DNA of 17,212 nucleotides, taken from NCBI GenBank assembly GCA_964638845.1, contig CAZXBN010000005.1, forward strand, positions 1-17,212, read 5' to 3'. The stretch comes from an uncultured Candidatus Saccharibacteria bacterium. Lineage in GTDB: Bacteria > Patescibacteriota > Minisyncoccia > Minisyncoccales > JANBVM01. The notes beneath the pieces are model-generated. The model did no database searches. It saw only the letters and a list, made by a program, of their open reading frames with translations, and had not been told where the DNA came from. The position numbers were made by a program, and so were the translations under genes. Of the stretch, positions 1 to 16,627 are shown in pieces; the first letter of the stretch is position 1; the number at the start of each line of letters is the position of its first letter.

Positions 1-237
1 AAAGTTAAAAACTTAGATTTAGATATTAAAAAATTTAATCTTATCTCAGAAGAAAGAATTAATATTTTGACTGAAGAAGGTTGGCAAATCTATTTAGATC
101 CTCAAAAAGATATTAATTGGCAGTTCACTAAACTTGAAACTGTTCTTAAAGGCTATCTTTCTTCTGACGAAAGAAAAAACTTAGAGTATATTGAATTAAG
201 ATTTGGTAATACAGCTCCTATTAAGAAAAGAGACTAA
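1..237 (+). CDS. C-terminal fragment of an FtsQ/DivIB-like cell-division protein (5' end outside window)
   Basis: Frame 1 is open from base 1 to TAA at 235-237 (78 codons: ...EEGWQIYLDPQKDINWQFTKLETVLKGYLSSDERKNLEYIELRFGNTAPIKKRD). The terminal L-x-YI(D/E)LRF-x-N pattern resembles FtsQ-family C-termini. It is absent from the ORF track because it has no start codon in the window. Confidence 0.4.
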   Translation, partial: KVKNLDLDIKKFNLISEERINILTEEGWQIYLDPQKDINWQFTKLETVLKGYLSSDERKNLEYIELRFGNTAPIKKRD

Positions 238-1964
238 GGGATATAGTAAATAAAGATTGATTTACCAGCTTTTGCTATTGGCTTATAGTCTTGAAGCCAA
301 CGATAGTAACCTCCATCATATTCAAAGCTAGGAAGAGGTTTTCCTGTTCCTGATTGAAGTAGGGTTGCTGAAACAGCAATATATCCTTTTGGTTTTTCTT
401 TTCGAGCATCAAACCATTCGGCTTTTTCTGGAAAATAATAATTTACATCAGCACCTCCAAAATAATCTATTTTAATTTTTTCAATATTATTTTCTTCAAC
501 CCATTTTTTAAGTCTTTTTAAATCTTGCCCCCAATCATAATTTGAATCAACAACATATTTATAGCCGTCATTAGTTCCAATCATTTCATTAAAGTAGGGA
601 ATATAATAAGGATAATTTAAAACTGAAGAAGCTGAATACCAACCAAGTGAAAAAAGAATAAAAGCAGACCCCATTACTTTAATTGTTTGTTTTTTACTTT
701 TTTGAATACTTTTTACAAGGTATGAACTTACAAGCATATAAGTAAAAGGAAAAACAGGGAGGAGGTGTCTAATTCCTAAGTTTAAATTTCCAAAAGCAGA
801 AGTTAGCCAATAAATTGCTAAAAAGATAAGCATTGATAATTCAGTAAAGTTATTTTTTAGTTTTTCTTTAATTGATTGGGTTTGTTTTTTAAATCTTTTT
901 ACAATGAATACTAATAAAGCAGTTATAGTTAAAACATGAAGTGCAATTGGAGCTTTAAGTAAATAGACTATTTGGAAATAATTTTTAAAACTTGCATTGT
1001 TTAATTTTCCAAGAAAGAAAGTTGTATTTCCAAACATTGTTCTTTGAGTTGCCATTAAAAGACCAGTAAAGTATAAACCTAAAGATCTTAAGATCGGGAT
1101 ATTTGATATTGAGATTAGCAAGTTTCTTAATGGGTCAAAAAAGTTTTTAGCTAGCATTCTAGTTGTATCTCTTAATTGTCTTTCTGGGGGGTAATTCATA
1201 ACATGCCATTGATATACTGGCCAAACAACAAAAATTACTGCTATTAAGCCAACTAAGACTGATTTAATAAGGTATTCAAACAGGTTTTTGTTTTTTAAGA
1301 AAACATAGATAAGAGTAATAATTCCAAAGAAGGGAACAAGAAGAGCCATTGAAAATTTAAGAAGTATTGTAAATCCAAAAACAAGACTAGTAATAATTAT
1401 GTTTTTTCGAGAAGGGTTTTTTAGAAATTTTAACCAAAAGTAGGTACTAACAACAAAGCCAAAAGTGGCTCCCAAATCGGTAGTAACTAATCTTCCGTGA
1501 GCTATAAGACTAGGTGAAAAAGAGAATAAGACTAAAACAAATAAAGCTGTTTTATTTCCATATTTTTCTTTAGCCCACTTAAAAAGAAACCAACCAAGAA
1601 AAACTAAAACAAAAAGCATTGGTATTCTAGCTAAAAAAACTATTTGATCAGCATTATTACCAGAATGGAAAATAAACTTATTACCGAAATCCCATTGGTT
1701 GTTTATTCCTTCTTGCCAAGCAGAACTTTCAGATGGGAAGTTTAAATCTAAAAATAAAAGAGGAATAGCTGATAAATCTTTAATGAAAGGAGGGTGTTCC
1801 GGGTTAATTCTAAAATCTTGTTGGGTTAAATAAGAATATCCGGCTGGAATATGAGATAGTTCATCAAAAGTCAGAGAATTATTTTTTACACTAAAAAAAC
1901 CTATTAAGAAAGTTATTGAAAGCAATAATATCGCAATAATGTTTGTTTTTTTATCTGTTATCAT
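234..1964 (-). CDS. GT-C fold membrane glycosyltransferase, PMT_2/ArnT-like (GT39/GT83-type, polyprenyl-phosphate-sugar dependent)
   Basis: 576-aa ORF with many hydrophobic segments. The first extracytoplasmic loop carries FDELSHIPAGYSY and NPEHPPFIKDL, the acidic DE motif plus EHPP-x-K signature of PMT_2/ArnT-type enzymes. The C-terminal domain looks soluble (YDWGQDLKRLKKW...). ATGA start/stop overlap with the upstream paralogue at 1961-1964. Confidence 0.8.
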   Translation of the reverse strand: MITDKKTNIIAILLLSITFLIGFFSVKNNSLTFDELSHIPAGYSYLTQQDFRINPEHPPFIKDLSAIPLLFLDLNFPSESSAWQEGINNQWDFGNKFIFHSGNNADQIVFLARIPMLFVLVFLGWFLFKWAKEKYGNKTALFVLVLFSFSPSLIAHGRLVTTDLGATFGFVVSTYFWLKFLKNPSRKNIIITSLVFGFTILLKFSMALLVPFFGIITLIYVFLKNKNLFEYLIKSVLVGLIAVIFVVWPVYQWHVMNYPPERQLRDTTRMLAKNFFDPLRNLLISISNIPILRSLGLYFTGLLMATQRTMFGNTTFFLGKLNNASFKNYFQIVYLLKAPIALHVLTITALLVFIVKRFKKQTQSIKEKLKNNFTELSMLIFLAIYWLTSAFGNLNLGIRHLLPVFPFTYMLVSSYLVKSIQKSKKQTIKVMGSAFILFSLGWYSASSVLNYPYYIPYFNEMIGTNDGYKYVVDSNYDWGQDLKRLKKWVEENNIEKIKIDYFGGADVNYYFPEKAEWFDARKEKPKGYIAVSATLLQSGTGKPLPSFEYDGGYYRWLQDYKPIAKAGKSIFIYYIP

Positions 1965-3451
1965 ATTTTAAAAATAGTTATATTATTTTGATGAATTATT
2001 TTTCCTTTTGGGAATTTTTCTTTTAATTTTTGAAACAATTGGTTATTTTCTTTATCAATTGGAACGATTACGGTGTTTTCTTTTTCTGGAATTTGGTTGA
2101 TATTTTCTGGGAATAAATATAATGATTTTTTATTCTCGATATTTTCTAAAAACATAGTTGTTTCAGATGTTACTGGAGAACTAATTACTATTTTATTAGT
2201 AGATGGAGGGAGAGAATTAAGGTATCTCCCAAGTTGAACATAATAATTTTTAAAAGCACTTCTAGTTTCTTCTTGATTAGACCAATTTATAAAATAATTA
2301 TTAAATTGGAGAAGAACGATTAAAACTAAAATAGACAAAAATATCTTTTTAATTATTTTTTTATTATATTTTTTTATACATTTTTGGTAGGTGGTTAAAA
2401 AACCAAGAGCTGAAATAATATAAACAGCTGGAACTATTCCAATGGTTCTTAAAGCATGCGGACAGCCCTGACTTGTTAAGATTCCTGGAAGTAGCATGGC
2501 AAAAAACCAAATAATTATAATCTTTTCTTTGGTTTTGTTCTTTTTTAAATTCTTAATAAGAAAGAAAAAACCAATTAGAAAAAACAGACCAACAATCCAT
2601 GATAATTGAGGTTTTGTAGCAATGTTATGACGCCAATTTTGATCTCCAAAAATATTAAACATTCCTAAATGGAGGAACAAGCTTTTAAATAATTCCATGA
2701 TTGGGGATTGGGTTTTAAAAACAGAAACTTGAGCTCCTCTGTTTAAAATCTTTTCTGGCTTTGTTAAGAGTAAAATACCCATCGGAAGAGCAGTTAAAAA
2801 AATTGTTAATAAATTTGCAATACTTATTTTTAAAAATCTTTTTAAGTTCTTTTTGTTTTTCCAATAAAAGAACAAGATAGAGAAGAGGATTATAATTGAT
2901 AAATAAAAAGGTGAATAAGAATAAAAACCTAAACCATAAAATATTCCGGCTAGGATAGATTTTCCAACTTTGTTTTCTCTAAAAGCTTTTAATAAGAAGT
3001 AGAAAGAGAAAGTTAATAAAAAAGGAACAAGAATTCCTCGAAAGGCAATTCTTGAAAAATTAACGTGCCAAAAAGAAACAGAGAGTAGGAAGCTTGCCAA
3101 TAAGGCAATTTTTTCTTTGTTTTTATTTTTAAAGAACAGTTCTTTTGTAAATAGATATAATCCAAGGGTTGTTAAAATTCCAATTATTATTGAGGGAAGT
3201 CGTAAGGTTGTAATACTTGGTTTAAACAATTGAAAGGAAAGAGAGATTAACCAAATAAAGAGACCTTCTCGTCCATTATTATGTTCATAAAATAATTGAA
3301 ATTTATTTTTTAAAGTTTTTAAAGCGTCATTTCCATTCACTGCTTCATCAGGATAAAGACCGGGGGGAGAATCAGAGATATTCCAGAATCTAAAAAAAAT
3401 AGCTATCCCTAAAATCAAGAACAATAAAATTTTAGTTTTTCTCTTAGACAT
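1961..3451 (-). CDS. GT-C fold membrane glycosyltransferase, ArnT/PMT_2-like (second paralogue)
   Basis: 496-aa ORF, strongly hydrophobic and multi-spanning. Loop-1 motif PPGLYPDEAVNGNDAL is the DE-containing signature of ArnT-like GT-C enzymes. First gene of a two-gene minus-strand unit. Confidence 0.8.
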   Translation of the reverse strand: MSKRKTKILLFLILGIAIFFRFWNISDSPPGLYPDEAVNGNDALKTLKNKFQLFYEHNNGREGLFIWLISLSFQLFKPSITTLRLPSIIIGILTTLGLYLFTKELFFKNKNKEKIALLASFLLSVSFWHVNFSRIAFRGILVPFLLTFSFYFLLKAFRENKVGKSILAGIFYGLGFYSYSPFYLSIIILFSILFFYWKNKKNLKRFLKISIANLLTIFLTALPMGILLLTKPEKILNRGAQVSVFKTQSPIMELFKSLFLHLGMFNIFGDQNWRHNIATKPQLSWIVGLFFLIGFFFLIKNLKKNKTKEKIIIIWFFAMLLPGILTSQGCPHALRTIGIVPAVYIISALGFLTTYQKCIKKYNKKIIKKIFLSILVLIVLLQFNNYFINWSNQEETRSAFKNYYVQLGRYLNSLPPSTNKIVISSPVTSETTMFLENIENKKSLYLFPENINQIPEKENTVIVPIDKENNQLFQKLKEKFPKGKIIHQNNITIFKI

Positions 3452-4762: not shown

Positions 4763-5038
4763 ATGAGTAAAAAAATAAAAATTAAAGCTAATAATGAAGA
4801 CTTAAAAGGTAGCTATTCGAATTTAGTACGAGTATCAAATCAAAAGGAAGAATTTGTTTTGGATTTCTTGATGGCAGCTGGAAAATCTGGAGTTTTAAGT
4901 TCAAGAATTATTGTTAGCCCTAATCATTTAAAGAGAATTGTTAAAACTCTTCAGAATAGTGTTGAAAAATATGAAGACCAGTTTGGCGATATTGAAGAGA
5001 GTAAAGGAGAAGAAAAAAAGATAGGTTTTGTAAAATAA
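4763..5038 (+). CDS. DUF3467-like small protein of unknown function
   Basis: 91 aa. The pattern YSNLVRVSNQKEEFVLDFLM...SRIIVSPNHLKRIVKTLQNSVEKYEDQFGDI matches my recollection of the DUF3467 family (Y-x-N...EEF-x-LDF...P-x-h-x-KRL...YE-x-x-FG-x-I). It starts 7 nt after grpE. Confidence 0.65.
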   Translation: MSKKIKIKANNEDLKGSYSNLVRVSNQKEEFVLDFLMAAGKSGVLSSRIIVSPNHLKRIVKTLQNSVEKYEDQFGDIEESKGEEKKIGFVK

Positions 5039-8713: not shown

Positions 8714-8785
8714 GCCCTCATAGCTCAACGGCAGAGCAGTAGCCTTTTAAGCTATTGGTTCCAGGTTCGAATCCTGGTGAGGGCA
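8714..8785 (+). tRNA. tRNA-Lys (anticodon UUU), no encoded CCA
   Basis: Folded by hand into a cloverleaf. Acceptor GCCCTCA/TGAGGGC. D-arm GCTC-AACGGCA-GAGC. Anticodon arm GTAGC-CTTTTAA-GCTAT with TTT at 8746-8748. Variable loop TGGTT. T-arm CCAGG-TTCGAAT-CCTGG. Discriminator A at 8785, followed by CAC rather than CCA. Confidence 0.9.
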
Positions 8786-8792
8786 CACTAAA

Positions 8793-10433: not shown

Positions 10434-12053
10434 ATGAAGCCAAAATTTATTTTCGTTATCGGTGGGGTGATGTCGGGAGTAGGAAAAGGAATCACCGCTG
10501 CTTCGATTGGACGAATTCTAAAAATGAGAGGCTTCAAGGTTACTTCAGTTAAAATAGATCCTTATGTGAATGTTGATGCTGGAACTATGAATCCAGTTGA
10601 ACATGGGGAGGTTTTTGTAATGGATGATGGAACTGAATGTGATCAAGATATTGGTAATTACGAAAGGTTTTTAGAAGAAAACTTAACAGCTGATAACTAT
10701 TTAACAACTGGAAAAGTTTATCAGTCAGTTATTAAAAAGGAAAGGAATTTAGAATATAAGGGGAGGTGTGTTGAAGTTATTCCGGATATTCCAAATGAAG
10801 TTATTTCAACGATTGAAAAAGCATCAAAAAAGAATGATGCTGATTTTACTATTATTGAAATTGGAGGAACGATTGGTGAATATCAGGGGTTAGTTTTTCA
10901 AGAAGCAGCCAGGATGATGAAATTAAAAAATCCGAAGGATGTTAAATTTGTTTTAGTTTCTTATCTTCCAATTCCAGCTCATATTGGAGAAATGAAAACA
11001 AAACCAACTCAAACGGCTTCGCGCCTTCTTAATGAAACTGGGATTCAGGCTGACTTTATTTTTGGACGTTCGAAAGTTCCTTTAGATAAGCCAAGAAAAA
11101 GAAAAATTTCAACTTTCTGTAATGTTGATAAAGAAAATATAATTTCTGCTCCAGACGTTGATTCTATTTATGAAGTTTTATTAAATTTTGAAAAAGAAAA
11201 CTTAGGAGATAAAATTTTAAATGAATTTGGCTTAAAGAAGAAAAAAGCAAAACTTAAAAAATGGAAGAAATTAGTTAAAACTATTAAGGGAGCAAAAGAA
11301 AAAGTTAAGATTGGAATAGTTGGAAAATATTTTAAAACTGGTGATTTTGTTTTGTCTGATTCTTATATTTCCGTTATTGAATCGATTAAGCATGCAGCTT
11401 GGTCTTTTGGAAAAGAAGCCGAAGTTAAGTGGTTATCAGCTGAAAAGTATGAAAAAGATAAGAAAAAACTTAAAGAAATTGAAGATTTGGATGGGGTGAT
11501 TGTTCCTGGTGGTTTTGGATCTCGTGGAACTGAAGGTAAAATTAACGTTATCCAATATTGTCGTGAGAATAATATTCCTTTTTTTGGATTATGTTTAGGG
11601 ATGCAATTAGCAGTAATTGAGTTTGCTCGTCATGTTTGTGGTTTAAAAGATGCTCATTCAACTGAATTAGATCCTAAAACCAAGAACCCAGTTATTGATA
11701 TTATGGCTGATCAAAAAAAGTTATTAAAAGATAAAGATTATGGAGGAACGATGAGATTGGGTGCTTATAAATGTGCTTTAAAGAAAGGAACAAAGTCTTA
11801 TCAGGCTTATGGAAAGAAAAATATTGAAGAAAGACATCGTCATCGTTACGAATTTAATAATCAATATAAGAAGGTTTTAAATAAAAATGGGATTGTTTTT
11901 GCTGGTCAAAATCCAAAAAGAGATTTAGTTGAAATTATTGAGTTAGAGAAACACCCGTTTTTTGTTGGAGTTCAATTTCATCCAGAATTTAAATCTCGAC
12001 CTTTAAATCCTCATCCTTTATTTAAAAAATTTATTAAAACTTGTATTAAATAA
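10434..12053 (+). CDS. pyrG: CTP synthase
   Basis: 539 aa. KFIFVIGGVMSGVGKGITAASIG, DPYVNVDAGTMNP-x-EHGEVFV, glutaminase GLCLGMQ, and HRHRYEFN plus QFHPEF are all canonical PyrG motifs. Confidence 0.95.
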   Translation: MKPKFIFVIGGVMSGVGKGITAASIGRILKMRGFKVTSVKIDPYVNVDAGTMNPVEHGEVFVMDDGTECDQDIGNYERFLEENLTADNYLTTGKVYQSVIKKERNLEYKGRCVEVIPDIPNEVISTIEKASKKNDADFTIIEIGGTIGEYQGLVFQEAARMMKLKNPKDVKFVLVSYLPIPAHIGEMKTKPTQTASRLLNETGIQADFIFGRSKVPLDKPRKRKISTFCNVDKENIISAPDVDSIYEVLLNFEKENLGDKILNEFGLKKKKAKLKKWKKLVKTIKGAKEKVKIGIVGKYFKTGDFVLSDSYISVIESIKHAAWSFGKEAEVKWLSAEKYEKDKKKLKEIEDLDGVIVPGGFGSRGTEGKINVIQYCRENNIPFFGLCLGMQLAVIEFARHVCGLKDAHSTELDPKTKNPVIDIMADQKKLLKDKDYGGTMRLGAYKCALKKGTKSYQAYGKKNIEERHRHRYEFNNQYKKVLNKNGIVFAGQNPKRDLVEIIELEKHPFFVGVQFHPEFKSRPLNPHPLFKKFIKTCIK

Positions 12054-12241
12054 TGTTTTCTTTTAAAGGAAACCAAGACTTTATTTTATTTGTTGGTATT
12101 TTTTTAGTTGTTTTACTTTCTTTTGCTTGTGGCTTTATTGTTGCTAAAAAACAAGAAAAAGAATCAATTAAAATTTATAAATATGAAAGAACAAAAAGTA
12201 GCTATTGTTGGAGCTGGAATTTGCGGTCTTTATTTAGCTAA
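12053..12241 (+). CDS. Possible small single-pass membrane protein (uncertain)
   Basis: The ATG overlaps the pyrG stop (TAATG). Sequence MFSFKGNQDFILFVGIFLVVLLSFACGFIVAKKQEKESIK has one clean TM helix followed by a basic stretch. The last 59 nt overlap the next gene out of frame. T-rich DNA gives hydrophobic peptides in more than one frame, so coding status is unproven. Confidence 0.3.
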   Translation: MFSFKGNQDFILFVGIFLVVLLSFACGFIVAKKQEKESIKIYKYERTKSSYCWSWNLRSLFS

Positions 12242-13130
12242 AAAACTTTCTAAAAAACATCAGGTTACTATTTTTGAAAAAAAGAAAAAGATTGGAAAGT
12301 ATGCTTGTTCCGGTCTTTTTTCTGAAAAAATATTAAGCTTTATTCCAGAAAGTAGAAAATTAATTAAGAATAGGATTAGCTCAGCCTTATTACATTTTTC
12401 TAAAAAAGAAATTAAATTAAATTTTCCTAAAGATTTTTTAGTAATTGACCATTTTAAGCTTGATCAATTAGTTGTTAAGTTAATTGACAAGGATCAGGTA
12501 AAAATACTCTTAAATCGAGAAATAGAGGCTATTCCGAGCGGTTTTGATCGGGTTATAGGTTGTGATGGAGCCAACTCTATTGTTCGAAAAAAAGTTGGTC
12601 TCCAACCAACAAAATGTCGAATTGGAATTCAAGGATTTCTTAAAAAGAAGGATTCTTCTGGTTTTGTTGAGGTTTGGCCAACTGAAAATGGTTTCATCTG
12701 GAAAATTCCTCGAGGTAATGAAATAGAATATGGAATTATTGAGGAGGTAGAAAAAGCTCAGAAGTTATTAAATAATTTTTTAAAAGAAAAAGATATCCAA
12801 CTAAAAGAAACTAGATCAGCTCTAATCCCAGAAGGATTTCAAGTTCCTTCTAGTAAAAAAATAACTTTGTGTGGTGATGCTTTGGGATTAACTAAACCTT
12901 GGAGTGGGGGAGGAGTTATTTGGGGCTTAACAGCAGCTGACATTTTATTAAAAAACTTTCCTGATTTTTTGAATTATAAAAAGAAGGTTGAAAGATTTTT
13001 TAAGTTTAAAATTCTCTTTTCTAGAATATTAACTAAATTAGTTTATTTCTTTGGTTTTAATTTTCCCTTTATTATTCCTAGTAAAGTGGAAATTGAAAAT
13101 GATTTTTTAATTTTTAATAAAAATGAATAA
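12183..13130 (+). CDS. FAD-dependent oxidoreductase, geranylgeranyl reductase family
   Basis: From ATG 12183 the protein starts MKEQKVAIVGAGICGLYLAKKL (GxGxxG). It has a K-x-x-C-S-G motif (GKYACSGLF), RVIGCDGANSIVRKKVG, GFIWKIPRGNEIEYGI, and LCGDALGLTKPWSGGGVIWGL, the pattern of geranylgeranyl-reductase-type flavoproteins. I rejected the ORF-track TTG start at 12108. Confidence 0.75.
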   Translation: MKEQKVAIVGAGICGLYLAKKLSKKHQVTIFEKKKKIGKYACSGLFSEKILSFIPESRKLIKNRISSALLHFSKKEIKLNFPKDFLVIDHFKLDQLVVKLIDKDQVKILLNREIEAIPSGFDRVIGCDGANSIVRKKVGLQPTKCRIGIQGFLKKKDSSGFVEVWPTENGFIWKIPRGNEIEYGIIEEVEKAQKLLNNFLKEKDIQLKETRSALIPEGFQVPSSKKITLCGDALGLTKPWSGGGVIWGLTAADILLKNFPDFLNYKKKVERFFKFKILFSRILTKLVYFFGFNFPFIIPSKVEIENDFLIFNKNE

Positions 13131-13800
13131 AAATATACCAAGACATTTAGGAGTTATTATTGATGGTAATAGAAGATGGGCTCGAAAAAGAAATTTACCC
13201 ACCTTTGAAGGTCATAAAAAAGGTTTAAATAATCTTAAATCTTTAATTCAGTGGTCAAAAGAAAAAGGAATAAAAATTTTAACAATGTATATTTTTTCGA
13301 CTGAAAACTGGAATAGGTCAAAGAAAGAAGTTGATTATTTAATGAAGTTATTTAAAAAAGTTTTTAAAAAAGGACCTGAGATAGCTAAAGGCGACATTAA
13401 AATTAATATTGCTGGGGAAAGAGATATGGTTCCGGAAGAAATTATTAAAATAATTCAAGAAGTTGAAGAGGAGACTAAAAACAACAAAGAAATGATTGTT
13501 AATTTTGCTTTTAGTTATGGTGGGAGAGCTGAAATTATTAATGCAGTTAAGAAAATAGTAAAGAAAGATATAGAACCAGAAGAAGTTACTGAAGATTTAA
13601 TAAAAAATAATCTTTACATTCCTCAAGACTTAGATCTATTAATCAGAACAAGCGAAGAAAGGGTTTCTAATTTTTTAATTTGGCAATTAGCTTATGCAGA
13701 GTTTTATTTTTTAGATAAACTTTGGCCAGCTTTTAGTAAGAAAGATTTTGAAGAAGCGATAAAAGAATATCAAAATCGAAAACGACGATACGGTAGATAA
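13123..13800 (+). CDS. uppS: Isoprenyl transferase (undecaprenyl diphosphate synthase family, cis-prenyltransferase)
   Basis: 225 aa. HLGVIIDGNRRWARKRNLP, FSTENWNRSKKEVDYLM, and LIRTSEERVSNFLIWQLAYAEFYF are hallmark UppS motifs. 8-nt ATGAATAA overlap with the reductase gene. Confidence 0.92.
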   Translation: MNKNIPRHLGVIIDGNRRWARKRNLPTFEGHKKGLNNLKSLIQWSKEKGIKILTMYIFSTENWNRSKKEVDYLMKLFKKVFKKGPEIAKGDIKINIAGERDMVPEEIIKIIQEVEEETKNNKEMIVNFAFSYGGRAEIINAVKKIVKKDIEPEEVTEDLIKNNLYIPQDLDLLIRTSEERVSNFLIWQLAYAEFYFLDKLWPAFSKKDFEEAIKEYQNRKRRYGR

Positions 13801-13822
13801 TTTTTGGTTTTTATCTTATAAT
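13794..13822 (+). promoter_or_regulatory. Possible promoter for the 128-aa/802-aa gene pair
   Basis: Perfect TATAAT at 13817-13822, 8 nt upstream of ATG 13831. Weak -35 TAGATA (4/6) at 13794-13799 with a 17-nt spacer. Confidence 0.35.
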
Positions 13823-13830
13823 TAAAAAAT

Positions 13831-14217
13831 ATGGACGAAGAAAAATTAAATAAAAAATCTAATAAGGAAAACTTTAAAACTGATCAAGAAATAGAAAAAT
13901 CTTTGGAGCGAAAGCCAGAAAAAAGAGAGTTCTTTGAAAACAAAGAACAGCAAAAAGAAATTGAGGAGAAGCTTGAAGAGGAATTAGAGAAAATGAAGAC
14001 TGAACCTGATAAATTGAAAGAGGATATAGAAACTGAAAAACAACAAATCAAAAACTTAAAAAAGAAAGGAAAGATTAATCGGTTACTTAAAATTGCTGAT
14101 AAAAAGGGGGTTGCTTTTGCAATTGCTGTTGCTAAAGATATGGATAGTCCTTATATTTTAGATATTCTTCATGATGTTTTAGCTCACAAAGGTTTTTATA
14201 ATAAGTTTATCAAATAA
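13831..14217 (+). CDS. Hypothetical protein: Glu/Lys-rich coiled-coil N-terminus plus compact hydrophobic C-terminal domain
   Basis: 128 aa. Residues 1-85 are almost entirely E/K/Q heptad-like sequence. The C-terminus is NRLLKIADKKGVAFAIAVAKDMDSPYILDILHDVLAHKGFYNKF. The stop lies 1 nt before the next ATG. I recognise no family. Confidence 0.7.
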   Translation: MDEEKLNKKSNKENFKTDQEIEKSLERKPEKREFFENKEQQKEIEEKLEEELEKMKTEPDKLKEDIETEKQQIKNLKKKGKINRLLKIADKKGVAFAIAVAKDMDSPYILDILHDVLAHKGFYNKFIK

Positions 14218-14218
14218 A

Positions 14219-16627
14219 ATGGATTTATTGCTTTTGTTTTTAATGATTATAGTTGGAATTGGGGTTGGTTTTTTAGTTTATTTATTTTTGAAAAAAAGAG
14301 AAAAAGAGTATATTTCTGAAAGCTTGAAAATGTCTCTTTTTTTAGTTTTAATGCCCAAACATGACGTTGAAGGAAAAAGAGAAAACCAAAGAAAAGAAAA
14401 AATGTTGATTGGGCAAATGGAACAAGTTTTAACTAATTTTTTAAGTTTAAGAAAACCAAACATTTTTGAAAAAATAATTTATGGTGAGCCAAGGGTTGCT
14501 TTAGAAATAGCCTCTCAAATAGGAGGAAAGGATATTTGTTTTTACGTTGCTGTCCCGCACTATATAGAGAGTTCTTTTGAAAAGTATGTTCAAGGTGTTT
14601 ATGATCGAGCTATAGTTGAAAAAGTTAATAAGGACTATACTATTTTTGAACCAGAAGGAAAAACGAGTGGTTGTTATTTAGACTTATCAAGAAGTAATTT
14701 TCTTCCAATTAGCACTTACAAAAAATTAGAAAAAGATCCTTTAGCTAGCACAACAAACGCTTTAAGTAAAATTAAAGCAAATGAAGGCGCAGCTATCCAA
14801 ATAATTATTAAGAACAGTAATCGTTCTTGGAAGGGGTTAGGTCAGTCAGTTTTAGCAGAGTTAAAAAAAGGGAAGAGTTTTAGAGATGCAACTTTCGATG
14901 TTCATAAAAGTTTTTTTGCTGAGCTTTTAGAAGAGGTATTTAAAATCTTTATTCCTTCTGGAAAAAAACCGAAAACAAAACAACAAAACAATGTTGATGA
15001 GAAGACGATTAAAGCGGTTCAAGAAAAAACCCAAAAACCAATTTTTGATGCAAATATTCGAATTTTAACATCAGCCCTTAGTCAGGCTAGATCAGATCAA
15101 ATATTGAATCATATTGAAAGTTCTTTTAGTCAATTTTCTCTTTTTGCTCCTAATAGTTTTCAAATGAGGAAGGTAGAAAATAAAAAACTTCGAAATTTAG
15201 TTTATGATTTTAGTTTTAGAAATTTTAACAAATCACAAAGAATTAATTTAAACATAGAAGAACTAACAAGTGTCTATCATTTTCCTACTTATTATCTTGA
15301 AACTCCTTACATTAAATCAATTAAGAGTACTGGTTCTGAACCCCCAATTAATCTTCCTAAGAAAGGAATTAATTTATTGGGGGAGGTTAATTTTAGAGGA
15401 GAAAAGAAGAAGGTAATGTTTGCAAATAAGGCTGATCGTAGAAGACATTCTTATTTTGTTGGACAAACTGGAACTGGTAAAAGTGGTCTTTTAAGAGAAA
15501 TGATTCGTCATGATATTGAAAATGGAGAAGGGGTTGCGGTTATTGATCCACATGGAGATTTGATTAAAGATACTTTAGCTAATATCCCTAAAGAAAGAAT
15601 GAAAGATGTTGTTTTATTTGATCCTTCTGATATAGAAAGACCAATTGGCTTAAATATGTTGGAATGGAAAATGGAAGTTCAGAAAGATTTTGCTGTTCAA
15701 GAAATGATTTCAATTTTTTACAAATTATTTTCTGCTGAAAGTATGGGGCCAATTTTTGAACATTCAATGAGGAATGCAATGTTAGCAGTAATGGCCGATA
15801 AAGATAACCCTGGTACTTTAATTGATGTTTCTAGAATTTTTAAAGATGAAGAATATTTAGATAGGCAACTTAAAAAAGTTAAAAATCCAATGGTTAGAAG
15901 ATATTGGACTAAAGAGTGGAAACAATCTGGAGCTGGAGAAAAAGCGGAAATGACAACTTATGTTGTCTCTAAGATTGGAAGGTTTATTGAGAATAATATA
16001 ATGAAAAATATAATTGGACAGAGACGAAGTGGTTTTGATTTAACTAAAATTATGGATGAAGGAAAGATATTTTTAGCTAATCTTTCAAAAGGGTCAGTTG
16101 GTGAAATGAACACTTCTTTATTGGGTTGTATCTTGGTTAGTAAGATTCAAATGGGAGTAATGAAGAGAAATAAAATTCCTGAGAAAGAAAGAAAAGATTT
16201 TTATTTATATATAGATGAGTTTCAAAACTTTACAACAGATAGTATTGCGACCATTCTTTCGGAGGCAAGAAAGTATCATTTAAACTTAATTTTAGCTCAC
16301 CAATATATTCCTCAATTAAAGGATGAAATTAGAGAAGCAGTTTTAGGAAATACCGGAACAATTGGTTCTTTAAGGGTTGGGGCTAAAGATGCTGAATTTT
16401 TAGAATCACAGTTTCAACCAAGTTTTTCTAGGTTTGATTTAGTTAATTTAAGTAATTTTAAAGCTATAATAAAAATGATGTTAAATGGTTCAGCCTCCAA
16501 ACCCTTTAAGGTCGATTTGATTGAACCAAAAGAAGGTAATTACCAGCAAATTAAGAAAATTAAGCAAATTTCAAGAATGAAATACGGAAGACCAAAATCT
16601 ATTGTAGATAAGGAAGCTTCTATATAG
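14219..16627 (+). CDS. Membrane-anchored P-loop NTPase, TraD/TraG/VirD4 coupling-protein-like (HerA/FtsK clade), with uncharacterised N-terminal domain
   Basis: 802 aa. N-terminal TM helix LLLLFLMIIVGIGVGFLVYLFL. Walker A FVGQTGTGKSG (GQTGTGKS at 15461-15484). Walker B FYLYIDEFQNF (DE at 16214-16219). This is followed by SEARKYHLNLILAHQYIPQL, the layout of TraG-D_C/T4SS coupling-protein ATPase domains. About 380 residues between the TM helix and the P-loop carry no motif I recognise. Confidence 0.8.
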   Translation: MDLLLLFLMIIVGIGVGFLVYLFLKKREKEYISESLKMSLFLVLMPKHDVEGKRENQRKEKMLIGQMEQVLTNFLSLRKPNIFEKIIYGEPRVALEIASQIGGKDICFYVAVPHYIESSFEKYVQGVYDRAIVEKVNKDYTIFEPEGKTSGCYLDLSRSNFLPISTYKKLEKDPLASTTNALSKIKANEGAAIQIIIKNSNRSWKGLGQSVLAELKKGKSFRDATFDVHKSFFAELLEEVFKIFIPSGKKPKTKQQNNVDEKTIKAVQEKTQKPIFDANIRILTSALSQARSDQILNHIESSFSQFSLFAPNSFQMRKVENKKLRNLVYDFSFRNFNKSQRINLNIEELTSVYHFPTYYLETPYIKSIKSTGSEPPINLPKKGINLLGEVNFRGEKKKVMFANKADRRRHSYFVGQTGTGKSGLLREMIRHDIENGEGVAVIDPHGDLIKDTLANIPKERMKDVVLFDPSDIERPIGLNMLEWKMEVQKDFAVQEMISIFYKLFSAESMGPIFEHSMRNAMLAVMADKDNPGTLIDVSRIFKDEEYLDRQLKKVKNPMVRRYWTKEWKQSGAGEKAEMTTYVVSKIGRFIENNIMKNIIGQRRSGFDLTKIMDEGKIFLANLSKGSVGEMNTSLLGCILVSKIQMGVMKRNKIPEKERKDFYLYIDEFQNFTTDSIATILSEARKYHLNLILAHQYIPQLKDEIREAVLGNTGTIGSLRVGAKDAEFLESQFQPSFSRFDLVNLSNFKAIIKMMLNGSASKPFKVDLIEPKEGNYQQIKKIKQISRMKYGRPKSIVDKEASI

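Follow-up and report, generated by a model that had tools for sequence, protein, structure and literature searches.

The 17,212-nt stretch analyzed here in its entirety (hereafter the window; contig CAZXBN010000005.1 of assembly GCA_964638845.1, from an uncultured Candidatus Saccharibacteria bacterium) contains two adjacent, co-directional genes that encode a 128-aa protein and an 802-aa protein (Table 1). The larger product combines a single predicted N-terminal transmembrane (TM) helix, an alpha/beta domain catalogued as DUF8128 (PF26449) and an ATPase domain of the type IV coupling protein (T4CP) class, whereas the smaller one, in which no TM helix is predicted, is by its sequence a cytoplasmic protein. 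The stop codon of the first gene lies 1 nt ahead of the ATG of the second, as an earlier note on this DNA had described, and this junction suggests translational coupling; the gap is 1-5 nt in close relatives and up to ~150 nt at more distant loci. The module that the pair forms is real and poorly understood, but it is no orphan and does not amount to a secretion system in its own right.

Table 1. Features of the gene pair (nucleotide positions in the window; residue numbers refer to the respective protein; ORF, open reading frame; AF2, AlphaFold2).
Feature	Residues	Position	Strand	Basis
Promoter-like TAGATA-17-TATAAT (candidate)		13794..13822	+	10/12 matches
Small partner gene, 128 aa, type-1 family		13831..14217	+	ORF
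Conserved C-terminal domain of the small protein, INRLLKIADKKGVAFAIAVAKDMDSPYILDILHDVLAHKGFYNKFIK	~82-128	14074..14214	+	alignments A2 and A5
Stop/start junction TAA-a-ATG		14215..14221	+	TAA 14215-14217, single 'a', ATG from 14219
802-aa gene, DUF8128 + T4CP-type ATPase		14219..16627	+	ORF
Single N-terminal TM helix (predicted)	~3-24	14225..14290	+	hydropathy and AF2 helix
TM helix in the AF2 model	2-36			AF2
DUF8128 domain, alpha/beta	~37-357	14327..15289	+	precomputed PF26449 and AF2
Alpha/beta domain in the AF2 model	38-352			AF2
Low-confidence stretch in the AF2 model	359-368			AF2
VirD4/TrwB-type nucleotide-binding domain	~405-770	15431..16528	+	Pfam, hhalign, Foldseek
Nucleotide-binding domain in the AF2 model, helices 486-599 inserted at the T4CP all-alpha position	~405-770			AF2
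Walker A, GQTGTGKS	415-422	15461..15484	+	sequence
All-alpha insertion	~486-600	15674..16018	+	AF2 model and hhalign to TrwB
Walker B, D666-E667 (LYIDEFQNF)	666-667	16214..16219	+	sequence
RKYHLNLILAHQYIPQL motif, aligned with TrwB RKAGLRVVAGLQSTSQL	684-700	16268..16318	+	sequence and hhalign

The C-terminal half of the 802-aa protein is, as judged from profile comparisons and a structural model, a bona fide VirD4/TrwB-type coupling-protein ATPase with intact Walker A and Walker B motifs and an inserted all-alpha domain. The matches of this protein in the Pfam copy used are confined to this half and include TrwB_AAD_bind (PF10412; residues 406-702, 34 bits against a cutoff of 20.5), DUF87 and TraG-D_C; across 56 diverse members of the family, TrwB_AAD_bind was recovered in all 56, TraG-D_C in 55 and T4SS-DNA_transf in 44. 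The family profile aligns with R388 TrwB (hhalign probability 95.9%, E 5e-9) over TrwB residues 114-392, a stretch that spans the Walker A motif, the all-alpha region, the Walker B motif and the RK...Q motif, and residues G415, G418, G420, K421, D666-E667, R684, K685, Q695 and Q699 are invariant in the family alignment A3. In the full-length AF2 model, built from a 74-sequence alignment (pLDDT 82), helices 486-599 fall between strands 464-467 and 617-621, and Foldseek matches the model to TrwB in the C-terminal half only (TMt 0.61-0.69). The TraD/VirD4-type P-loop domain, with its two Walker motifs and the RKYHLNLILAHQYIPQL motif, and the single N-terminal TM helix, seen in both the hydropathy profile and the AF2 model, are all where the earlier note had placed them. 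Because the NCBIfam TraD models score far under their cutoffs (TIGR03743, 41 bits vs 366; TIGR03754, 24 vs 648; TIGR02759, 14 vs 521), the protein is a divergent T4CP-type ATPase and not an equivalog of any typed TraD.

With the T4CPs in general (VirD4/TrwB/TraD/TraG; PF10412, PF02534, PF12696) the family shares the P-loop domain with its all-alpha insertion, N-terminal membrane anchoring, and the Walker A, Walker B and RK...Q motifs that align with those of TrwB. It differs from them in the extra DUF8128 domain of ~320 aa between the anchor and the ATPase, in the lack of adjacent relaxase or mating pair formation (MPF) genes, both in the window and in the flanks of 80+ loci with the exception of one locus described below (L087), and in being chromosomal, apparently vertically inherited and unusually conserved. 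Like FtsK/SpoIIIE and HerA, the protein belongs to the FtsK-HerA ATPase superfamily and produces weak FtsK_SpoIIIE and DUF87/HerA matches, and its membrane tether has a parallel in FtsK. The FtsK_SpoIIIE matches are found in 42 of the 56 family members (best 3.3e-4), the domain being absent from the Pfam matches of the window protein. However, the family lacks the multi-span N-terminal domain and the gamma domain of FtsK/SpoIIIE as well as the HAS-barrel and the NurA partner of HerA; the HerA equivalog model NF040819 reaches 16.7 bits against a cutoff of 970, and there is no nuclease gene next to the pair in the window. In the PADLOC search, mad8 matches the ATPase domain at 1e-14 and HerA matches are weak, and the Foldseek matches include the DndH C-terminal domain and 8dol (Cag-beta with CagZ).

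At its N-terminus, the ATPase is predicted to be tethered to the cytoplasmic face of the membrane via one helix. The hydropathy peak (residues 3-21, Kyte-Doolittle 2.84) is followed by KKREKE, which argues for an N-out/C-in orientation, and one TM helix is found in all 49 non-fused first copies in alignment A3 but in none of the 5 fused proteins in it. The region between this helix and the ATPase, ending in the motif EELTSVYHFP, had been considered unrecognized in the earlier note; residues 30-394 alone indeed have no match in the Pfam copy searched, which does not contain PF26449. The domain is nonetheless catalogued as DUF8128: the database annotation gives a precomputed PF26449 match for P0001, a protein identical to that of the window, and for each of the 120 best homologs. 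A phmmer search with DUF8128 alone yielded 1,036 clusters at 50% identity, in which the domain always occupies residues ~35-380 or ~140-480. There is no mention of DUF8128 or PF26449 in the searchable literature.

The predicted fold of DUF8128 appears to have its nearest counterpart in the VirB4 N-terminal domain. The best Protein Data Bank (PDB) matches of the full-length model are TrwK/VirB4 chains (~900 columns, E 4e-15), ranked above TrwB, and for a model of the domain only (residues 35-372, pLDDT 69, pTM 0.69) the top 5 Foldseek matches are all TrwK/VirB4 (E 7e-5 to 2e-3, TMq 0.37-0.48), followed by generic ferredoxin-like folds at TMq ~0.2. At the sequence level, no link of DUF8128 to solved structures or to TrwK was found, the hhalign probability of the family profile against R388 TrwK/VirB4 being only 7.7%. 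These observations bring up an alternative under which the protein would be a divergent assembly ATPase of the VirB4 type and would serve, as a second motor of this kind, in the biogenesis of a pilus or channel and not in coupling. The size of ~800 aa and the succession of an N-terminal domain and a C-terminal ATPase are shared with VirB4 (TrwK of R388; PDB 7o42, 7o43, 8rtd), the N-terminal domain of which is the best and only specific structural match of the DUF8128 model, and VirB3-VirB4 fusions carry N-terminal TM segments. We nevertheless consider this alternative improbable: the N-terminal domains are dissimilar in sequence, the ATPase half aligns with TrwB and not with TrwK, the VirB4-associated AAA_10 domain is matched weakly in 9 of the 56 family members and CagE_TrbE_VirB is not within the 25 most-matched Pfam families among them, most Patescibacteria possess separate canonical VirB4 genes, and neither a VirB3-like nor any other MPF gene adjoins the pair at the loci examined.

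The 128-aa protein, here denoted type 1, consists of a variable, K/E-rich region that makes up the N-terminal two thirds and a conserved helical C-terminal domain of ~50 aa, in which, over 36 sequences, D111 is invariant and L85, G93, H114 and L117 are present in at least 90%. It has no match to a characterized family, searches against Pfam, NCBIfam, PADLOC and the PDB returning nothing beyond coiled-coil noise; 2 homologs were found from the single sequence and 23, all unnamed, from a profile. In four unrelated genomic contexts, an ORF of 128-137 aa ends 1-5 nt upstream of the ATPase gene, and these ORFs align together. An iterated hidden Markov model search of the six-frame ORFs of all loci placed the type-1 protein directly upstream of the ATPase at 33 loci. 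Overall, 71 of the 79 loci with upstream sequence have a recognizable partner: 33 a separate type-1 protein, 9 a fused type-1 domain, 21 a type-2 and 8 a type-3 protein. The co-conservation of the two genes, which the earlier note had made a prediction of its proposal, holds across unrelated contexts. Type 2 is marked by the motif ...WLKxIPGVNKFFLEQEAKIKTDKI and shows no homology to type 1 by hhalign (probability 0.4%), and type 3, found in a clade that includes Levy- and Woesebacteria (Microgenomates), is P/A-rich with a Trp-rich amphipathic C-terminal helix, 5 of its 8 members being linked by jackhmmer and 3 by eye only. When the ATPases are placed on a neighbor-joining tree, those with the same partner type group as monophyletic units, and all fusions fall in a single clade inside type 1; the partner therefore co-evolves with the ATPase while changing much faster.

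At the 9 fused loci, the type-1 domain and the ATPase share one continuous reading frame, with the former at the N-terminus; the resulting proteins of 908-956 aa have lost the TM helix, and the C-terminal domain of the partner is followed by a short linker and the first DUF8128 strand. Because the domain begins at residues ~137-172, as in the fused layout, in 28 or more of the 150 top-ranking DUF8128 clusters, the fusion is not an assembly error. Its topology suggests that the small protein docks at the N-terminal, membrane-proximal end of DUF8128 and not at the all-alpha domain. The Cag-beta/CagZ and TrwB/TrwA pairs are precedents for a T4CP that has a small helical protein encoded beside it or acting on it, and in R388 the ~120-aa trwA ends 1 nt before trwB, just as the small gene here precedes the ATPase gene; the type-1 protein, however, is homologous neither to TrwA nor to any solved structure.

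The module is widespread, homologs having been recovered from every Patescibacteria lineage that was sampled. There are more than 5,581 database homologs of the ATPase, the best 120 of which are alike in architecture and 774-830 aa long; in NCBI records they go by 'type IV secretion system DNA-binding domain-containing protein' or as conjugative transfer proteins (Nealsonbacteria, Minisyncoccales, Parcubacteria). At least 494 loci were confirmed in species-representative genomes of Parcubacteria, ABY1, Microgenomates, Peregrinibacteria and Berkelbacteria. The best 80 of these show 38-59% identity over the full length and come from Staskawicz-, Portnoy-, Magasanik-, Uhr-, Buchanan-, Komeili-, Falkow-, Berkel-, Levy-, Woese-, Peregrini-, Peri-, Nomura-, Vogel-, Niyogi- and Adlerbacteria, and among close relatives mean column identity is 70%. 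From these sequences, the gene pair is apparently a phylum-wide, vertically inherited module of Patescibacteria. Second, divergent paralogs of the ATPase occur at two loci (L077:3587-6160 and L049:11624-14416) and group together on the tree; the former is a tandem copy without a TM helix and with a partial DUF8128 match, and the latter keeps the N-terminal TM helix. They are consistent with the about two T4CP-like genes per genome in the literature.

A recent survey reported 5,713 VirD4-like homologs in 2,918 of 3,035 Patescibacteria genomes (96%), only 148 of them near virB4, which itself was found in 2,417 of the 3,035 genomes (80%) and of which ksgA is a typical neighbor; T4CP genes are often distant from virB4 (Quinonero-Coronel et al., 2025; PMC12102498). 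The 'T4CP homologues' of this survey are almost certainly the same gene set as the DUF8128-ATPase. With so many homologs in the databases and in print, the designations 'orphan' and 'undescribed' in the earlier note are not supported. In the sections of the survey that were searched, however, there is no mention of the DUF8128 domain or its fold, of the small partner families or of the fusion with TM loss, and VirD4 and T4CP are not mentioned in the main text of Wang et al. (2023).

The genes that flank the ATPase differ between clades. In the type-2 (ABY1-like) clade, the ATPase gene is followed by a gene for a ~210-aa protein without a Pfam match and by dnaX at 20 loci (L019:9329-9961, L035:8468-9091 and 18 more for the ~210-aa protein), and with the small partner these genes make up a tight four-gene operon. 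The type-3, Microgenomates-type clade has a class II ribonucleotide reductase gene and, at 6 loci (L061, L066, L069, L071, L073 and L081), a Xer-like tyrosine recombinase of constant length (286 aa) 0.1-1.3 kb downstream of the ATPase on the opposite strand (L073:8444-9301, - strand), and the fused clade has ndk downstream. The ybaB gene adjoins the pair only in the window and in its closest relative, and its adjacency was accordingly ruled out as a general functional clue.

As for type IV secretion system (T4SS) genes in relatives, none lie within +/-6 kb of 80+ other loci, as found by searches that included phmmer with the proteins of the sole exception, L087. In this closed Nealsonbacteria genome (CP179892.1), genes for T4SS_pilin (27.6 bits against a Pfam cutoff of 26.6; directly past ksgA) and PrgI/VirB3 start 5.6-10 kb downstream of a homolog with 61% identity to the window protein, and a member of the clade that possesses a T4SS therefore exists. 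The T4SS-like cluster itself (L087:18035-22454) consists of T4SS_pilin, an 825-aa and a 140-aa protein of unknown function and PrgI/VirB3, and is preceded by a comM-like gene, a LysM/M23 peptidase gene and ksgA.

In the window, G+C content is uniformly low (26-33%). Two glycosyltransferase genes at the left end are divergently oriented relative to the remaining, co-directional genes, namely hrcA-grpE-DUF3467-hsp20-dnaK-dnaJ, tRNA-Lys, an S41 protease gene, rplI, pyrG, an FAD oxidoreductase gene and uppS (Prenyltransf match, 1.7e-81), after which come the 128-aa gene, the 802-aa gene and ybaB (YbaB match, 1.2e-9). The neighbors named in the earlier note (uppS, pyrG, rplI and a YbaB-like gene) were correct, and so was its statement that T4SS partners, a relaxase and an integrase are absent from the window, none being found among the window proteins. 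The separate transcription unit that it had proposed from the TATAAT box has fared less well: the box is present (13817-13822, with 8 nt between its end and the start codon of the small gene), but promoter-like sites are not enriched above shuffled sequence in this AT-rich window (23 observed vs 18.3 +/- 4.2 expected), so the promoter inference is weak. No terminator was found 3' of either the 128-aa or the 802-aa gene.

Several other features of the window deserve a record. The only Rfam match is a single tRNA-Lys(UUU) between dnaJ and the S41 protease gene (8714-8786), and the DUF3467 gene lies within the heat-shock operon (4763-5038) in an arrangement kept in a relative with 69% identity (L001). 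The two glycosyltransferases are a tandem of PMT_2-family proteins of 576 and 496 aa (234-3451, - strand); at 6 other loci (L028, L037, L038, L041, L045 and L070), a homolog of the 496-aa protein is encoded 0.2-4 kb ahead of the module and on the strand opposite to it. A 62-aa ORF with a hydrophobic stretch (12053-12241) overlaps the called TTG start of the 340-aa FAD oxidoreductase (12108-13130), and since L001 has a matching pair of 60 and 315 aa, this start may have been called too far upstream. In L001, the block that is syntenic with the window gives way directly to a variable defense or mobile island (L001:15288-22418) with genes for a tyrosine recombinase, a type I restriction enzyme and AbiEii, which the window contig ends too early to show.

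The island of L001, 3-10 kb downstream of the module, together with the mad8, HerA and DndH C-domain matches, could be taken to mean that the ATPase is a remnant of a mobile element or a defense-system ATPase akin to HerA or to mad8 of MADS. Such an origin is, however, scarcely credible given that the window has uniform composition with no flanking repeats, composition shift or integrase, that the distribution is phylum-wide and looks vertical, with a co-evolving partner, that synteny with housekeeping genes is conserved, and that the HerA and mad8 matches reflect generic similarity within the FtsK-HerA superfamily and score below the T4CP matches.

The interpretation that we favor, and to which we give about an even chance of being right, is that the ATPase is a nucleic-acid or other substrate motor at the cytoplasmic face of the membrane, T4SS-associated or exapted, that works with an adaptor and is not a self-contained translocon. 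Under this scheme, the ATPase would assemble as a hexameric motor at the cytoplasmic membrane face, recruit a macromolecular substrate, most plausibly nucleic acid, and energize its transfer; the substrate would be passed to a channel encoded apart from the pair, for which the monoderm-type T4SS found elsewhere on the chromosome in most Patescibacteria is the likeliest candidate. The role of the small protein would be that of an adaptor or regulator that docks near the membrane-proximal end of DUF8128, in parallel to TrwA-TrwB and CagZ-Cag-beta.

The earlier note had suggested a membrane translocon complete with its two components, the functions of the VirB channel and the relaxase being taken over by DUF8128 and the small protein. 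The co-conservation of the pair, the near-absence of adjacent T4SS genes and the distribution of the family, which is wider than that of VirB4 (PMC12102498), are what such a system would predict. However, each subunit contributes no more than a single TM helix, and the small protein and the fused clade have none, which argues against a self-contained translocon; no part of the module could form a channel through the membrane and the wall, and Patescibacteria genomes offer T4SS, ComEC and type IV pilus systems at other sites. With VirB4 in 80% of the genomes and T4SS genes near the homolog with 61% identity, the proposal of the earlier note now appears very unlikely.

The favored interpretation, a motor with an adaptor, has several observations to contend with. 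VirD4-like genes are more common in Patescibacteria than VirB4 (96% vs 80% of the genomes; PMC12102498), T4SS genes are missing from the window and from within +/-6 kb of the other 80+ loci, L087 excepted, and in S. epibionticum the t4cp gene is reported to be non-essential whereas other T4SS genes are essential, on account of which the survey states that exaptation 'cannot be ruled out' (PMC12102498). Canonical T4CPs have two TM helices and no VirB4-like N-terminal domain, whereas here there is one helix, and none in the fused subclade, where the loss of the anchor is hard to reconcile with permanent docking of the motor on a channel. The VirB4-fold match itself comes from a model of moderate confidence (pLDDT 69), with TM-scores below 0.5 and without sequence support. 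Finally, dnaX at the 20 type-2 loci and the Xer-like recombinase at 6 Microgenomates-type loci point to chromosome metabolism.

Several of these observations would be accommodated by a housekeeping motor independent of the T4SS, that is, a coupling ATPase exapted early in Patescibacteria for a chromosome task, such as DNA translocation, segregation, or remodeling coupled to replication or repair, with the small protein targeting or regulating it. The conservation is very high for a T4CP, considering that the 38-59% identity holds across class-level lineages; the genes are always set among housekeeping genes, including the type-2 operon with dnaX, the Xer-like recombinase, ybaB in the window and a close relative, and ndk in the fused clade; the family is spread more widely than VirB4 and exaptation is left possible in the survey (PMC12102498), which also reports the non-essentiality of one t4cp (PMC12102498); and the membrane anchor is dispensable in the fused clade. 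Yet the association with these neighbors carries little weight because they differ from clade to clade, the ybaB adjacency being limited to two close relatives. Further, a missing FtsK is no obvious gap to be filled because at least Saccharibacteria have an annotated ftsK, a DNA-binding domain was not identified in the family, and the family retains in full the sequence hallmarks of a T4CP, the all-alpha domain among them. On balance, we regard such a housekeeping role as less likely than the favored interpretation, though as its main rival.

A bolder scenario, which we entertain as a rather doubtful one, is that of a phylum-wide hybrid motor, with a VirB4-like N-terminal domain and a VirD4-type ATPase, that would have been present since the ancestor of Patescibacteria. 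With fast-diverging, lineage-specific adaptors, it would drive the uptake or processing of DNA or RNA that comes from the host, and the essential T4SS might or might not be the route. A protein of this composition might represent an evolutionary intermediate between the VirB4 and VirD4 ATPases.

The gene family as such is already known, having been annotated, catalogued and counted in the 2025 survey (PMC12102498); the predicted VirB4-like fold of DUF8128, the co-evolving partner families and the fusion accompanied by loss of the anchor appear to be undescribed in the searchable literature. Should the ATPase simply prove to be the coupling protein of the known T4SS, encoded at a distance from it, the result would be a useful annotation and not new biology. 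Much of bacterial diversity is made up of Patescibacteria, which depend on host cells for their living; for their acquisition of macromolecules, the T4SS and the uptake of host DNA or RNA have been brought forward in recent reviews and preprints. A motor of the coupling type that is nearly universal, strongly conserved and equipped with an adaptor of its own is an obvious, unstudied candidate for a part in this acquisition, and the predicted VirB4-like fold of DUF8128, the three partner families and the anchor-losing fusion provide handles for experiments and for the study of T4CP and VirB4 evolution.

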